From contig CBDFJG010000001.1 in the NCBI GenBank assembly GCA_965248445.1, positions 352,001-416,000 on the forward strand: DNA of 64,000 nucleotides. Reading direction: 5' to 3'. Origin of the DNA: Planctomycetota bacterium (GTDB taxonomy: Bacteria > Planctomycetota > JAJSAM01 > JAJVHW01). Below the pieces are notes generated by a model. That model had not been told where the DNA came from, made no database searches, and saw only the letters and a program-made list of their open reading frames with translations. Numbering within the stretch: the stretch's first letter is position 1; each line of letters begins with the position of its first letter. The translations under genes and the position numbers were made by a program. Below are positions 9,424 through 49,591 of this stretch, in pieces.

Positions 9424-9993
9424 CTAGTCCGGCGGATGCGGGTGCGCGGCGCGGACCTCGTCCGGCCAGAAGTCCTCGAGGTCGATGCCGAGGCCATCGA
9501 CGGTGCGGTTGCACCACGCGAAGAACCCGCTGATCTGATTGACCCCGACGATGCCCTCGTCGGAGAAGCCGACCGCGCGCAGCGCTTCGACGTCGGCGCG
9601 ACGCATGGCGCCCGGCGTCCGGGTGAGTTTGATGACGTGGTCGATGAGAGCGCGCAGCCGGGGCGTCGTCTCGACGGTCGTCGGATCCGCCTTCAGTCCT
9701 TCCACGTAGTCAGCGTCGTTGCAGTGACCTAACAGGCCCCGCGCGTGGTGGACCACTCAGTAGTAGCAGTCGTTCACATGGCTGACGGTGACGGCGATCG
9801 TCTCCCGCTCGATCATCGTCAGATCGAGCGGCCCGTGCATCACGCCCTTGTAGAAGGTCAGCAGCGCATCGAGCGCGCACGGCACCAGCGAGTGCGCCTG
9901 CACGACGTTGTCGGGCCGGCCGGGCAACCCTGCGTAGAGCGCCGCCAATTCGCCCGTGGCCTGTTCGGGGCCGATGAGGGGAACCCACGCCAT
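9424..9993 (-). CDS. AhpD/CMD-like peroxidase, predicted selenoprotein (CxxU)
   Basis: ORFs 9757-10071 and 9424-9756 are in one frame: ERETIAVTVSHVNDCYY-TGA-VVHH. TGA 9757-9759 sits at the second Cys of the AhpD CxxC. C-terminal half has KLTRTP and FFAWCNR. SD GGAGG before ATG 9993. Confidence 0.88.
9721..9742 (-). promoter_or_regulatory. Putative bacterial SECIS hairpin
   Basis: GCGG-GGCCU-GUU-AGGUC-A-CUGC at +15 to +36 after UGA, with apical GU at +24/+25. It includes a TTA codon that is rare in this window. Confidence 0.7.
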
Positions 9994-10122
9994 ATCGAGA
10001 TCCTCCAGGGTGTGACACGCGACCATCACAACCAGGCGAACTTCCGACGAGTCGGTGGTCGAGTCGGTCAACGAGTGAGTTTAGTTGGCGACTGTCCAGC
10101 TGACACCCGGCGATCATGAGCC

Positions 10123-43688: not shown

Positions 43689-44747
43689 ATGAATGGGCCG
43701 GCCGCCGCAGAGAGAATCCTCCTCGTGCGACTCTCGTCGCTCGGCGACGTCCTCCAGGCGATGCCGGCGCTGGCCGGTCTCCGCGCGGCCCGGCCGAACG
43801 CCGCGATCGGCTGGCTGGTCGAGCGCCGCTTCGAGGACGCCGTGCAGGGCCACCCGCACATCGACCGCGTCTTCGTGTTCGACCGGAAGAAGAGCGGCAG
43901 CCTGCTTTCGAATGCCGGGGCGGCGTGGCGGACGAGGCGGGAACTGCGTGCGTGGCGGCCGGACGTGGCCGTGGATCTGCAGGGCAACCTGAAGGGTGCG
44001 ATGCTCGCATGGCTCTCTGGTGCGCCCCGGCGGATCGGTTTACCCCGTGGCGAGGCGAGCGAAGGGGCGCATCGACTGGCTACCGAGACCGTAGCTGCGT
44101 CCCCCGATTCGCGGGAACACCGCAGCGAACGGGCCCGCCGTCTGCTCACGCCGCTTGGAGCGAACGGTTCGGGCGATGCGGAACTTGTCCCTGTCGACGA
44201 GCGCACGCGATCCGCGGTGACGTCGGCACTGGCTGCGGCGGACGTGGACGACGGACGCTTCGTGCTGCTGCTGCCGGGCACGAGCGACTTCGGCGCGTTC
44301 AAGCGCTGGCCGGCGCTACGCTTCGCGGCACTGGCACGGGAGCTGCAGTCGCGGGAGGGAGTGCCGTCGCTCGTCGGCTTCGGTCCGGGCCAGAGGGGCC
44401 TCGCGGAGGAGATCGTCGCCGCGTCGGACGGCGCCGCCCGCCTGGCACCGGAGACGCGTGACCTGCGCGAGGTGCGCGCACTCGCCGAGCGTGCCGCCGT
44501 CGTGGTCGGTCCGGACTCCGGACCACTGACGCTCGCCTCCCTGGCCGGGTGTCCGACCGTCGTCCTGTTCGGCCCCAAGGATCCGCAGATCTACGCGCCG
44601 CGCGGTCCGAAGACCGCGCACGTGTGGAAGGGTGTCTATTGCTCGCCCTGCGCACTGCGTCAGTGCGCCGACCCGATCTGCATGACGACCATGAGTGTGG
44701 ACGAGGTCCTGGTCGGCATCGCAGAGGCATGCGGAGGCGTGGCATGA
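43689..44747 (+). CDS. Glycosyltransferase family 9 (heptosyltransferase-like)
   Basis: ILLVRLSSLGDV, DLQGNLK, KRWP, DSGP, LFGP. Confidence 0.92.
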   Translation: MNGPAAAERILLVRLSSLGDVLQAMPALAGLRAARPNAAIGWLVERRFEDAVQGHPHIDRVFVFDRKKSGSLLSNAGAAWRTRRELRAWRPDVAVDLQGNLKGAMLAWLSGAPRRIGLPRGEASEGAHRLATETVAASPDSREHRSERARRLLTPLGANGSGDAELVPVDERTRSAVTSALAAADVDDGRFVLLLPGTSDFGAFKRWPALRFAALARELQSREGVPSLVGFGPGQRGLAEEIVAASDGAARLAPETRDLREVRALAERAAVVVGPDSGPLTLASLAGCPTVVLFGPKDPQIYAPRGPKTAHVWKGVYCSPCALRQCADPICMTTMSVDEVLVGIAEACGGVA

Positions 44748-45658
44748 GGCGCGCCCTCCTCCTGGCGGCCGTTCTCTCGTTGGCCACGCCCTGCGCCCGG
44801 TCGGCGGACGATTCTCCGCCGCTCAGCATCACTCTGGCCGACAAGAGCGTGCGCGTCGGGAGCGACATCGTGCTCCGCCTGAAGTTCGAGAACCGCGGGC
44901 GGGACGAGGTCACGCTGCCGGCGTTGAGGCTCGCGCGCGACGCCGTCACGCTGACCGTCGCCGGACCGGAGTCGGGTCTGACCCGCACCATGATCACGAG
45001 GCTCTACGGCTCGTTCGAGTCGCAGGACGACGGTGTCGAGTTCCGCGAGCGACCCACCCGGCGCGTGCGGGTGCCCGCCGGGAAATCGATCGCCGCCGAC
45101 ATCCGGTTGCCTGCGCTCGTGACCGGAGACCTGACACTGAGCGTGGCGCTGGGTCAGCCCGGTCCTACGCGCCTTCGCGCGGAGTCGGTGACCGTCAAGG
45201 TGACCGCGGCGCGCACCGCGAGCGTGCCGACGGCCGTGGTGGTGACCTCGCGCGGCGAGATCACTCTGCGGATCGACCCACTCACGGACTACGGCGCGGC
45301 GGCCCAGTTCTGGGCGCTCGCGCGCTCAGGGTTCTACGACGGCCTGCCCGTGCACCGCGTGATCCCCGGACGGCTCGCGCAGACGGGCGACCCGCGCGGC
45401 AACGGCACCGGCGACGCCGGCTGGTTCGTTCCGGGCGCCGGATCGGCGACGAAGTTCGCAGTCGGCGACGTCGGGCTTGCGCGCGGCGCCCACAGGGACT
45501 CTGCCAGCTCGCAGTGGTTCGTGGTGCTCGCCGACGACGGTCCCAAGGGCAAGTTCGCGCGGGTCGCAACGGTGATCTCGGGTCTCGACGTCGCCCGCGC
45601 GCTGCGCGCAGGCGACATACCCGACCGCGTCAAGGCGATCCGCGGCGAAGTGCGCTAG
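44744..45658 (+). CDS. Secreted cyclophilin-type PPIase with N-terminal Ig-like domain
   Basis: GFYDGLPVHRVIPG, QTGDPRGNGTG, DSASSQWF. Confidence 0.85.
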   Translation: MRRALLLAAVLSLATPCARSADDSPPLSITLADKSVRVGSDIVLRLKFENRGRDEVTLPALRLARDAVTLTVAGPESGLTRTMITRLYGSFESQDDGVEFRERPTRRVRVPAGKSIAADIRLPALVTGDLTLSVALGQPGPTRLRAESVTVKVTAARTASVPTAVVVTSRGEITLRIDPLTDYGAAAQFWALARSGFYDGLPVHRVIPGRLAQTGDPRGNGTGDAGWFVPGAGSATKFAVGDVGLARGAHRDSASSQWFVVLADDGPKGKFARVATVISGLDVARALRAGDIPDRVKAIRGEVR

Positions 45659-45664
45659 CGCCGG

Positions 45665-47560
45665 CTAGCGGACGCTGCGCAGGAAGTCGAGGTACGTCTC
45701 CGGCGTGCGTGCGTTCGACCAGTCGGCGGACGCGAGGATCTCGCCCGTGTGCGGATCGACGATCACGTGCCGCGGGATCGAGATGTTCCCGACGAGTTTC
45801 TTCATGCGCGCCCGCTGCTGTACGTCGAGAGGTGCGATGGTCGGGTCCTGGATCCAGATCTGCATCAGCTCGAAGCGGTCGAGTTCCCGGCGAACTTCCG
45901 GGGACGTGGAGATCATGATCTCCAGCGCCGCGCAGTTGATTCAACCCTTGCCGGTGAAGTCGAACAGCACGTAGCGGTCGGCGGCAATCGCCCGTTCGCG
46001 CGCGCCTTCCCAGTCGTTTCGCGGCCACTCCAGGTGCGCTGTGTCACCCGCGGAGCCCCCATCGCCGACGATCCAGAGATCCTTCGGCTCGGTCTGGATG
46101 AAGCCCTCGAGGTCCGACGCCAGCGGGCGGCCGAACAGCCCCGGCACGATGTAGAGCCCGAGCGAGAAGAACATGACGGCGAACAGCATGCGCAGGGTGC
46201 CGACGGTCTCCACCTTCGTGTCCTTGGGCAGCGAGAAGATCCCGAACAGGTACATCGCCGCTGCGAACGCGCACGCCGCCCAGATCGCGAGCACCAGCGT
46301 TCGCGGCAGGATGTCCCAGTCGTGGTTGATGGCGACCGTTCTGAAGAACTTGAACGCCAGTCCGAACTCCACGAATCCCATCGTGACCTTGACCGCGTTC
46401 ATCCAGCCGCCGGCCCGCGGCATCGTCTTGAGCAGCGCCGGGAACAGCGAGCAGAAGAAGAAGGGCACCGCGACGGTGACCGAGTACGCGAGCAGTCCGA
46501 TCAGCGCGGCGGACTTGTCGCCTTCCTCGAACGTCGTGAACATGATCGCGAGGAACGGGATCGAGCAGGAGAACGAGGTCAGGGCGAGCGTCATCGCCAT
46601 GAAGAACGGCCCGATCAACCCGGTCGCCGAACTGCGCTTCGTCGTGGCGTCGGTGAGGAACCCCGGAAGACGCAGGTCGAACAGGCCGAACAGCGACAGC
46701 GCCAGCACGACGAAGAGCACGCCGACGAACACGTTGAACGCATCGCCGCGTGCCATCACGTCGAGGCTCGCTCCGAAGATCAGACCGACCACTGTCAGCG
46801 TGAAGATGATGCCGAACGCGTAGACCAGCGCCTTCGGCAGGACGGCGCCCTCCTGCTTGCTGAAGAAGCTCACGGTGACAGGGAGCAGCGGGAACACGCA
46901 CGGGGTCAGCAGCGTGATGAGACCCCAGAAGACGCCGCTGCCGATGATGCCGCCGACGCCGCCGGACATCTCCTCGGGTTCGCCGGCGCCGGGCACGACC
47001 GGAGACGCGCCGTTGCCGCCCGTCTCCGGCCCCAGCCATTCCGTGACGACGAACGACGCCTCGATCGGCCGCGTCTCCTCGGGCAGGCACTGCATCGGAT
47101 CGCACGCCATCGCGCTGAACGAGCCCCCGATCGTGCGCGGTCCGAGCGCCGCGTCCGGCGCAACCGTCACCGCGATCGAGAACGTCACCTCGGCCTCGTG
47201 CTCGATCGTGATCAGATCGGGCATGTCGGGGATCCGTGCGATCTCGTGCGGCTCCGGAAACTCGCTGAGCGCGCCCGCGGTCAGGCCCTCCGGCAGATCG
47301 AGCTCGATCCGCGGCGGCTGGCCGTACTTCAACCCGTAGAGATGCCAGTCCGGGACGATCTCGATCTTGACGCGAACTTGCGTCGTTCCGCCGGCCGGAA
47401 CGGTCGCCGGGTCCGCCGTGACCGAGACGATCTCGAACTTCTGCTCCTCCGCGAGCCCGCCGCCAAGCGGGTCGTCCTGCGCGATCGCGAGACCCGACCA
47501 CAGCGCACACGCGGCGGCGAGGGGCAGGGCGATCTTGCGAAGCAGGGCGTGGATCTTCAT
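45665..47560 (-). CDS. dsbD: Thiol:disulfide interchange protein DsbD, predicted selenoprotein (UxxC)
   Basis: Alpha domain WHLY and CDPMQC; TM domain TPCVFPLLP and FSCSIP, GGWM; thioredoxin domain FDFTGKG-TGA-INC continues in frame to the stop at 45665, with cis-Pro-like SIP. Confidence 0.88.
45903..45929 (-). promoter_or_regulatory. Putative SECIS-like hairpin in dsbD
   Basis: GGCG-C-UGGAGAU-CAUG-AUCUCCA-CGUC at +12 to +38 after UGA; the loop differs from the E. coli fdhF type. Confidence 0.55.
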
Positions 47561-47657: not shown

Positions 47658-48427
47658 TCACTTGCAGCGCAGGGTCATCGCGATCTCGCGGAGACGCTCC
47701 TCGGGGAGCGTGCCCACCAGGGCGCAGAGCGTGTCGGTCTCCGGACAGATGTACGTCACGACGTTCCGGCCGTTCTCCTCGGCGATCCACCAGTCCAGCC
47801 CGTCCCGCTCGACGTGGCGCCGGAACGACGGCGAGGAGCCGATCAGGTCGCTCCAGATCACCGTGAAGCCCTCGCCCCCCCCGCGCTCGTAGCGAGCACG
47901 CACGGCGCGGGCGCCGGCGCGGTATCCGACGTTCACGAGGTCGCCGACGCCGGTCTGCGAGTACTCGAGCAGTTCGATCGGCGGCAGGACGCGGTTCAGC
48001 AGGCCGTCGCGCTCACCGCTCGGCGGCAGCGCGGCGCCGTCGGCCGTGGTGGCCGCCGCCTCCATCGCCTGGAGATACGCGCACTCGAACGGCGGGATGC
48101 AGAGCGACCACATCGCGGTCACGGCAACGAGTGCGACCGCCGCCAGCGACGCGATCGCCTTGGCCTGTCGCCGGAACGGACGACGCGTCCCCCGGCAGGC
48201 TGTGTGGCCCGTTCGCGCGCCGCGGACAGCAGTCCCGCGAAGGCTGCGTCTTGCACGCCTGCGAGCATCGCGGAGCGCGATCGTTCCTCGAACACACGCT
48301 CGGCGTTGGCCAACTCGGCGCAGTCGGCGCACGAGGTCTCGTGGGTCTCGGCGGCACCCTGCTCCGCGCCGGACAACTCCCCGTCGATGTGGGTGAGCAC
48401 GTGCTTGCGGAAGGTCGCGCAATCCAT
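47658..48427 (-). CDS. ZAS (zf-HC2) transmembrane anti-sigma factor with a frameshift near 48178
   Basis: MDC...IDGEL...HETSCADC in one frame; TM and extracytoplasmic domain in another. Adding one C gives GGRVVPFRRQAKAIASLAAV. Confidence 0.8.
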
Positions 48428-49092
48428 CAGGCATCACCTTCCTTCAAGAGCCCGTCCCGCTTGACGAATCCGTGCTCCGCCGCGTAGCCGGCGAGTTCCT
48501 CGCGGATCTGCCGTCGTCCGCGGTGCAGACGCGACATCACGGTGCCGATCGGGATGTCCAGCGCGTCCGCGATCTCCTGGTACGACAGGTCTCCGAGCGC
48601 AAACAGCACCAGCGGAATGCGGAACGTCTCGCTCAGTCCGTCAACGGCGGCCTTCACGCGGTCGTCGAAGTGATGGTCCGCCAGACCGGGGAGTTCTCCG
48701 AGCGAACGGGTGTCCGGCTCCGGGTGGTCGTGGTCCGCCGGGCGCAGGTCCACTGGGTCCACGGCGGTCGGCGCCATCGACTCCCGCCGGATGCGGTTCA
48801 CGAAGACGTTGTGCAAGATGCGGAACATCCACGCCCGGAACCGGCTGCCCTTGCGGAAGCTGCCGAGGCTCCGGAACGCCCGGTACAGGGTCTCCTGAAC
48901 TAGGTCTTCGGCTTCGGCGCGGCGGCGGGAGAGCCGTAGGGCTGTGGACATCAGCGGGCGGTGGATCTCGAGGACCATCTGTTCGAACTCGTCGGGAGTC
49001 AGGGAACCGGCCTCGGCAGGGTCCCCAGCCTCAGAGGGAGCCTCGCCGTCGCCAGATCCTGGCCGCCGCGCAGAACCGTCCTCGCCGTCCAT
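48427..49092 (-). CDS. ECF sigma factor (SigR/SigH-like)
   Basis: AEDLVQET, FRAWMFRILHN, LSYQEIADALDIPIGTVMSRLHRGR; SD GAGG before ATG 49092. Confidence 0.92.
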   Translation of the reverse strand: MDGEDGSARRPGSGDGEAPSEAGDPAEAGSLTPDEFEQMVLEIHRPLMSTALRLSRRRAEAEDLVQETLYRAFRSLGSFRKGSRFRAWMFRILHNVFVNRIRRESMAPTAVDPVDLRPADHDHPEPDTRSLGELPGLADHHFDDRVKAAVDGLSETFRIPLVLFALGDLSYQEIADALDIPIGTVMSRLHRGRRQIREELAGYAAEHGFVKRDGLLKEGDA

Positions 49093-49171
49093 GTATTCCT
49101 CGCCGCCTCGATGGACCGGCCGGGGCTCATGCCCAGGCACCCCGCCTACCGAAAGGAACTCTGAGACTCGC

Positions 49172-49591
49172 ATGTGGTGGTACAGCGACCAGAAGAAGAA
49201 CCCGAGCACGGCCCCGGTCGCGGCTCCGGCGGTCCCCGACACGTCCGGGGATCCGTACGCCGCGCTGGACGCCGCACTCTCCGACGCGCTGCGCGAACTG
49301 CCGCTGCTGTCCCACGCGCTCCTCGCGATGAGCCTGCTCGTGGACCACTCGGTGCACTTCGCCGACGGCACCGAGCTGCCCTCGATGACCTGGCAGAAGG
49401 CGGAGGCGACGGTCGCCCGGACCCGCGGTCCGGACAACCCGAGCCGGCTCTACAACGCGTTCGCCCAGGAGCTCGGTGACGGGTACTCGCTGCGCACCGA
49501 CCTCCCCCCCGAGCAGTCCGCGATCCTGACGCAGCTCCGGCAGGCGCTGCTCAACTCGAGCGCGATCAAGTCGCTCGAGAGCGCTTCCTGA
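49172..49591 (+). CDS. Hypothetical protein
   Basis: Coding-like codon pattern and AAAGGA upstream; no recognisable family. Confidence 0.6.
   Translation: MWWYSDQKKNPSTAPVAAPAVPDTSGDPYAALDAALSDALRELPLLSHALLAMSLLVDHSVHFADGTELPSMTWQKAEATVARTRGPDNPSRLYNAFAQELGDGYSLRTDLPPEQSAILTQLRQALLNSSAIKSLESAS

Follow-up and report, generated by a model that had tools for sequence, protein, structure and literature searches.

A dsbD gene with an in-frame TGA codon

Reducing power enters the periplasm chiefly through DsbD. The window, by which we mean the whole stretch of 64,000 nucleotides that was analysed, carries a dsbD gene on its minus strand (Table 1). Translation from 47560 to 45665 yields 539 codons, a TGA (45943-45941), 91 further open codons and a terminal TAG. 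The TGA, codon 540, stands between YVLFDFTGKG and INCAALE.

When the TGA is read through, Pfam assigns DsbD_N to residues 53-166, DsbD_TM to residues 210-405 and Thioredoxin_7 to residues 513-603. Hydropathy analysis revealed a signal-peptide-like N-terminus and seven clear membrane stretches; an AlphaFold model (90-sequence alignment, pLDDT 87.7) supplied an eighth helix (385-412) and folded the three domains as a beta-sandwich, a helical bundle and a thioredoxin fold. Foldseek searches with this model retrieved the DsbD-alpha structures 3pfu, 6dps, 1vrs and 1l6p and the DsbD-gamma-type structures 3f9u and 1uc7, and the beta domain matches the CcdA structure 5vkv. About eight transmembrane (TM) helices would place gamma, like alpha, on the exported side. 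The read-through protein has the parts of a full-length DsbD: an exported alpha domain of Ig fold that carries a Cys pair, a beta domain of about eight TM helices with two Cys, and a gamma domain with C/UxxC and a cis-Pro. The key residues of gamma are D534, U540-x-x-C543, E547 and Pro596 at the cis-Pro position. Among aligned loci, the alpha Cys are kept in 153/155 and 146/155, and Cys is invariant at positions 221 (175/175) and 332 (176/176). No other Sec was found at the alpha or beta Cys columns of the 176 full-length loci aligned.

An earlier note, made from the letters of the window, had described this gene as a full-length DsbD with Sec at the attacking position of its exported thioredoxin domain (FTGKG-U-INC), a frame running 91 codons past the TGA, and intact alpha and TM Cys pairs. 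The domain matches, the model and the codons agree with that description, and relatives carry only TGA or Cys codons at the Sec column.

Table 1. Features of the dsbD locus in window coordinates
Feature	Position	Strand	Basis or remark
dsbD, 631 codons counting UGA as Sec	45665..47560	minus	Stop TAG at 45667-45665
Predicted signal peptide, residues 1-27	47480..47560	minus	Hydropathy; hydrophobic stretch 9-28, A-I-A before Q28
DsbD-alpha (DsbD_N, Ig fold)	47063..47404	minus	Pfam PF11412, E 2.5e-5; Foldseek 3pfu, 6dps, 1vrs, 1l6p
Alpha Cys pair	C153 47104-47102; C158 47089-47087	minus	Both TGC codons
DsbD-beta membrane domain, about 8 helices	46127..46951	minus	Pfam PF02683, E 8.9e-22; hydropathy; AlphaFold model
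TM Cys pair	C221 46900-46898; C332 46567-46565	minus	Both TGC codons
DsbD-gamma thioredoxin domain	45668..46024	minus	Pfam PF13899; PDB 3f9u by sequence and fold
In-frame TGA, predicted Sec540	45941..45943	minus	TGA or Cys codons in homologs at this column
Hairpin 1, nt 12-38 after UGA, loop CAUG	45903..45929	minus	Proposed spacer hairpin
Hairpin 2, nt 39-55 after UGA	45886..45902	minus	CCCGG-AAGUUCG-CCGGG; proposed SelB-binding SECIS
ECF sigma factor and zf-HC2 anti-sigma (two frames)	47658..49212	minus	Upstream of dsbD; possible regulator, membership uncertain

The window's protein scores 99.9 bits against the NCBIfam DsbD model PRK00293, below its cut-off of 330, and NCBIfam 20.0 holds no model that covers it. 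No second DsbD_TM gene was found in the genome, and the window's dsbD is the sole one found. The genome has a separate DsbD_N gene (G000 C3:1133583-1133915). Several relatives of the same family (f1, L009-L014) carry a second DsbD_N-like domain ahead of alpha, of which the window's gene has one. Some Sec-DsbD genes extend about 100-160 residues past gamma; in extended genes the downstream frame runs 188-197 codons (L037, L141, L144, L146, L178, L179, L186) or 258-260 codons (L119, L129, L188). A stand-alone gamma-like domain with D-x-x-C instead of U/C-x-x-C was also observed (L376, G005:C107).

The TGA alternates with Cys codons across the phylum

In a survey of 301 genomes of the phylum, 157 matched at E<=1e-35. 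Among the 150 of these matches listed, hand-sorting gave 89 with one TGA (the window's own included), 41 that span the motif free of stops and 20 that end before it. The codon at column 540 was read in 105 relatives' loci (98 + 7) and is TGA in 72 and TGC or TGT in 33, with nothing else. The downstream frames are equally long: in the 98-locus set, TGA loci keep 84-189 codons (median 96) and Cys loci 86-150 (median 97.5). Across the 176 full-length loci, stops fall 90 times at column 540 and at three other columns once each. The homolog comparison that the earlier note had suggested as a check therefore supports its claim. The resolving Cys is kept in 128/128 Sec genes and the Glu at +7 in 126/128, while the Asp at the D534 position is Asn in 76/128 Sec versus 14/100 Cys genes, in lineages that are not independent.

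A motif scan of GTDB genomes extended the distribution. Among the 80 of 117 loci that were listed and hand-sorted, 63 are true DsbD, comprising by title 52 from Planctomycetota, 2 from Armatimonadota, 7 unclassified, 1 from Bacillota and 1 from Chloroflexota; the Bacillota-labelled locus nests among Planctomycetota on the tree. The other 17 are chance motif matches with downstream frames of just 0-60 codons. On a FastTree phylogeny of 168 rows, from which the Sec site was masked and the SECIS region mostly excluded, the Sec and Cys states need nine changes, of which five are forced by well-supported branches. A metagenome scan with the single DsbD protein returned no relative. A scan with an alignment brought up mostly remote Cys forms (of 73 parsed, 72 had Cys and 1 had TGA; 7/80 were unparsed), so the SECIS alignment of the own family stays at eight sequences.

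In protein databases, 44/45 close homologs, named Planctomycetes, terminate exactly at DFTxxx, that is, at the TGA. Such records are what a true stop would give, with an alpha-beta product and a gamma region that is either a remnant or translated on its own after re-initiation, for instance at the Met nine codons downstream. One genome, G188 (90% complete), could also be read in this way: its dsbD (L042) has the TGA form, and neither selA nor selB was matched in it. An assembly gap or a recent loss of Sec decoding are alternatives for G188. However, a true stop would sever the thioredoxin fold at its active site, TGA is the only stop ever found at the column (never TAA or TAG), the residues beyond it are conserved as described above, and the TGA form goes with selA almost without fail (88/89 other TGA genomes, versus 35/42 genomes without a stop in the match) and with Sec-specific RNA structure. 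We consider a true stop very improbable.

Sequencing error, or a UGA read as Trp or Cys through reassignment or leaky readthrough, is less credible still. UGA reassignment is known in some bacteria, but the only tRNA with a TCA anticodon in this genome is the tRNA-Sec, TGA serves as an ordinary stop (600 such sites were sampled), and column 540 alternates with Cys only. The earlier note had named reads with TGC or TGT as a refutation. Contigs of four public runs show no letter that differs over dsbD; they all come from one sample, possibly the source of the window's DNA, and are a weak check against assembly error. Conservation of the TGA across species, over many families of the phylum, is the strong one. 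On this comparative evidence, UGA540 is almost certainly decoded as Sec by SelB and tRNA-Sec.

Selenocysteine machinery and other candidate selenoprotein genes

The sel genes, whose presence the earlier note had proposed to confirm, were detected: the genome (5.4 Mb, 92% complete) contains selA, selB and selD above curated cut-offs and one tRNA-Sec, and its selD carries an in-frame TGA of its own. A coding-potential and motif screen returned about 25 further Sec candidates in the genome. Of 20 examined, 17 match Pfam thioredoxin-fold or known selenoprotein-type families, 18 have a signal- or anchor-like N-terminus by a heuristic, and 18 are UxxC.

We also compared genomes with either form of dsbD. 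Among the 150 of 165 rows listed, Trx_7 matches with TGA outside DsbD numbered 28 in 9/10 Sec-DsbD genomes versus 2 in 1/10 selA-positive Cys-DsbD genomes; selB was present in 4/4 selA-positive Cys-DsbD genomes tested. A Sec-DsbD that feeds an exported selenoproteome may explain this co-occurrence, and general genome-wide use of selenium fits equally.

Individual candidates include the following. L310-L329 (G000) comprise at least 20 Sec candidates, mostly exported thioredoxin folds, with L314, L316 and L319 lacking a Pfam match. The ArsC-like candidate alone passes an NCBIfam cut-off, and L326 is a DUF1223 and transglutaminase fusion with UxxC. Two possible small selenoproteins, G000 C4:226830 (minus strand) and C3:68224 (plus strand), have an in-frame TGA followed by strong canonical G-loop hairpins; their motifs are AFAUPNC after a signal-like stretch and SACGTUG. 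Within the window, an AhpD/CMD-like CxxU candidate with a CMD domain lies at 9427-10080 on the minus strand (TGA at 9759). It has a canonical hairpin with a GUU loop, so the AhpD gene with a different loop to which the earlier note had referred does exist.

Two abutting hairpins follow the UGA

The earlier note had reported a strong hairpin 12 nt after the UGA with the loop CAUG. The position and the loop of this element, hairpin 1, are correct, and its strength is moderate: by itself it is only moderately above chance in three of four folded stretches, where z lies between -1.8 and -2.1 and 7-13 of 200 shuffles fold equally well, and z is -0.64 in a 104-nt stretch. Its loop lacks the consensus G, and a canonical bacterial SECIS (bSECIS; G in loop position 1-2, loop at 16-37 nt) is absent from the window's gene. 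A canonical proximal bSECIS is present in 71/128 members of the Sec-DsbD family. In DsbD genes without a canonical G-loop, the hairpin-1 loops are 3-15 nt long and comprise 34 different sequences in 42.

Hairpin 2, which the earlier note does not mention, abuts hairpin 1 and presents G-U at nt 46-47 (45895-45894). In the window's gene it is slightly degenerate, with a 5-bp stem and a 7-nt loop in which G stands third, and it fails our strict rule (a stem of 4 bp or more without mismatch, -3 kcal/mol or lower, and G followed by G or U at loop position 1-2). G46 and U47 are nevertheless predicted to be unpaired (p 0.88), in register with the family.

We applied the strict rule to proximal loops (14-37 nt after the UGA) and to distal ones (loop start at 43-45 nt). 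The 128 distinct Sec genes divided into 54 with the proximal hairpin only, 43 with the distal only, 17 with both and 14 with neither, the window's gene being among the 14. The corresponding figures for 100 Cys genes were 11, 4, 0 and 85. The split recurred in a separately collected scan set (23, 21, 8 and 6 of 58). For proteins matched for P14-x-V16, the distal hairpin was found in 48/65 Sec versus 2/41 Cys genes, with a background of 27/600. Hairpin 2 occurs in 17/71 genes where the proximal hairpin is canonical and in 43/57 where it is not; on phylogenetically independent pairs this trade-off was not significant in an underpowered comparison (3.4 the same way, 0.6 opposite, median p 0.25). 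The loop G-U is also the start of a Val codon kept in Cys homologs, so its invariance is partly protein-driven.

The stem of hairpin 2 shows compensatory change. In 35 P-A-V-A genes with 25 different stem-loop sequences, two synonymous third positions are Watson-Crick paired in 35/35 (11.9 expected), as G-C in 32, A-U in 2 and C-G in 1; the 32 identical G-C pairs were most likely inherited largely within one clade. Double changes affect 3/6 stem pairs in the eight-member own family and 5/5 in 46 genes of alignment A4, which were chosen for having the hairpin, so that the percentage paired in A4 is circular. Covariation, which the earlier note had listed as a check, is thus seen in hairpin 2; the loop of hairpin 1 is unconserved.

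With the first 11 nt kept from pairing, to mimic a ribosome, folding gave two adjoining hairpins in 41/43 distal-only genes, 1/54 proximal-only genes and 6/100 Cys genes. The tandem layout recurs in two unrelated selenoprotein genes of the genome. For a DUF3179 gene, three orthologs have the G at nt 46, with hairpin 2 recognizable by sequence in all three and in the minimum-free-energy fold of one. For an ArsC-like gene, it is found in 2/2, with a longer hairpin 1 and a CGUGA loop at 51. In the mostly open-access literature searched, no description of tandem or distal SECIS hairpins was found.

The two hairpins could share the recoding function in different ways. SelB might bind hairpin 1 in spite of its non-canonical loop, with hairpin 2 as an accessory pause or stability element. 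Hairpin 1 lies at the canonical distance (loop nt 24-27) and is under selection: its mean energy is -9.9 kcal/mol in genes that have only the distal hairpin, compared with -6.7 in Cys genes of matched GC content, with z against synonymous recoding of -1.72 in Sec genes and -0.20 in Cys genes. Some bSECIS elements fall outside the consensus model, according to the available part of a 2026 review (PMC13188914), and genes such as the window's have neither strict hairpin. We find this division of roles rather unlikely, given the free variation of the hairpin-1 loops, the rarity of hairpin 2 where hairpin 1 is canonical, and the G-loops of other selenoprotein genes. The strict-rule proximal hairpin is kept in 23/27 Sec candidates of the genome and in 29/29 parsed Trx_7 selenoprotein genes of relatives (30 fetched, one mis-parsed), versus 152/600 ordinary TGA stops, which makes the SelB of these organisms look conventional.

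We therefore favour hairpin 2 as the probable SelB site. The suggestion of the earlier note that the CAUG loop reflects relaxed SECIS recognition is probably wrong, since that loop varies freely, other Sec genes are canonical, and the distal G-U hairpin is conserved and covarying. Hairpin 1 would fold just outside the ribosome and loop out about 27 nt, and the looped-out spacer would put the G-U-loop hairpin 2 within reach of SelB. According to the available text of a SelB structure paper (PMC4605307), the loop G lies about 20 nt from the UGA and SelB has a flexible hinge; a folded spacer would restore this reach.

Comparison with known systems

In the available text of PMC2631958 and PMC3961690, electrons pass in E. 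coli DsbD from thioredoxin to the TM domain, to cDsbD and to nDsbD, and Cys461 attacks the nDsbD disulfide. The same sources give Cys461 a pKa of about 10.5, set by Asp455 and Glu468, which leaves it unreactive until alpha binds and so avoids futile oxidation. The window's protein resembles E. coli DsbD in domain order, three redox pairs, about eight TM helices, the cis-Pro position, and the acidic residues six positions before and seven after the attacking residue (D534 and E547, equivalent by spacing to Asp455 and Glu468). It differs in having Sec in place of Cys461, in belonging to the DFTGxxCxNC subfamily, and in falling far under the NCBIfam DsbD cut-off. The Bacteroides DsbD-type C-terminal domain in PDB 3f9u (DFTGYGCVNC subfamily) shares the motif and is the best match for gamma in sequence and fold; it is a Cys form. 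TsoB (NF045694, rhodanese/DsbD fusion-like) is likewise a selenoprotein with a DsbD/CcdA-type TM domain and the best NCBIfam match. However, the window's protein scores 109.6 bits versus its cut-off of 805, and TsoB has the motif UxxxxU and is filed as a rhodanese form.

The selenoprotein named 'Thiol:disulfide interchange protein' (PF13098, WP_011366075.1; GOS 'Trx-like 2', cd02953) shares UxxC and a related thioredoxin fold. That name is also a DsbD annotation, and cd02953 is the DsbD-gamma model. Both forms were considered as the same protein and rejected. The representative, WP_011366075.1, is a soluble protein of about 190 residues, a thioredoxin domain plus TPR-like helices, with no membrane domain (deep-Sep supplement). 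GOS 'Trx-like 2', in the available text of PMC2398784, comprises 22 reads, mostly stand-alone Trx-TPR, none of them membrane-linked and none with FTGxxUxNC. One of these reads is a fragment of proteobacterial-type DsbD-gamma without the TM part (PMC2398784, same text), which is a domain-level precedent only.

As the earlier note had stated, no characterised example is known from the literature searched, mostly open-access papers and the BSepDB text, in which no DsbD selenoprotein is described. The available part of the 2026 review, whose Table 1 covers 119 families (PMC13188914), lists no full-length DsbD with Sec in gamma. No DsbD selenoprotein appears in the available text of PMC4807772 with Table S9, nor did term searches of the main texts available for PMC13326102 and PMC12013277 give a match. 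Sec-DsbD is thus a central envelope protein that is uncatalogued as a selenoprotein, although a UxxC on a thioredoxin fold is familiar chemistry.

Less expected is a SECIS that probably lies distally, beyond a spacer hairpin; the comparative support for it is good. The consensus bSECIS (Zhang and Gladyshev model) has G in loop position 1-2 and its loop 16-37 nt after the UGA, as given in the available part of PMC13188914. Hairpin-2 loops (GGUC, CGUGC, AGUU, GUG) obey the loop rule, whereas they begin 44 nt after the UGA.

A putative selenium-dependent electron relay

By analogy with the E. coli protein, the window's dsbD very probably encodes a DsbD electron relay. Electrons from cytoplasmic thioredoxin would pass to C221/C332 in the membrane and on to a U540-C543 selenylsulfide in the periplasmic gamma domain. 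Sec540 would then attack the C153-C158 disulfide of alpha, and alpha would reduce exported substrates, which are probably to be sought among the many exported UxxC thioredoxin-fold proteins of the genome. Free Sec has a pKa of 5.2 (available text of PMC10779653), and Sec540 may be a faster, less gated nucleophile than Cys461.

Taken as a whole, a full-length DsbD selenoprotein is very likely, as judged from sequence, and a two-hairpin signal is the most likely means of its recoding. A broader reading, which we hold at about even weight, is that Planctomycetota have a selenium-based periplasmic reducing network whose sole trans-membrane feeder is a DsbD with Sec replacing the pKa-gated Cys. In this broader reading, the SECIS elements of dsbD and of at least two unrelated genes would share a geometry not described before: a spacer hairpin of no fixed sequence would take about 27-33 nt out of the path, and SelB would act on a second hairpin, with a G-U loop, that lies 44-51 nt past the UGA. 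Selenoprotein finders based on the SECIS model would then miss tandem-hairpin genes. Should SelB bind hairpin 2, the spacing of bacterial SECIS elements would be governed by folded geometry and not by linear distance, with consequences for selenoproteome prediction and for engineered Sec insertion with fewer coding constraints beside the UGA.

Sec-DsbD was gained or lost at least five to nine times on the tree, and the matched Sec and Cys forms that result can be compared to learn what advantage Sec brings and how futile oxidation is prevented. Because public databases end dsbD prematurely in much of the phylum (89/130 of the motif-spanning matches listed), DsbD function is mis-annotated there.

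Neighbouring genes

An ECF sigma factor gene and a zf-HC2 anti-sigma gene lie directly upstream of dsbD in 7/7 family relatives (L330-L336) and in 0/5 loci of other families. The anti-sigma carries a C-x-P-P-F-E-C pair just past its TM helix, kept in 7/7 family relatives, and it may sense the periplasmic disulfide state and control dsbD. In the window the anti-sigma is split at about 48110-48150 on the minus strand, with the zf-HC2 part at 48427-48119 and the TM and periplasmic part running to 47658. It is a single frame in seven relatives, and the split is either a true frameshift or an assembly indel. On the other side, a PPIase gene of the cyclophilin type, whose product has a signal-like N-terminus (44612-45658, plus strand), is convergent with dsbD, which it adjoins in 6/7 family relatives.
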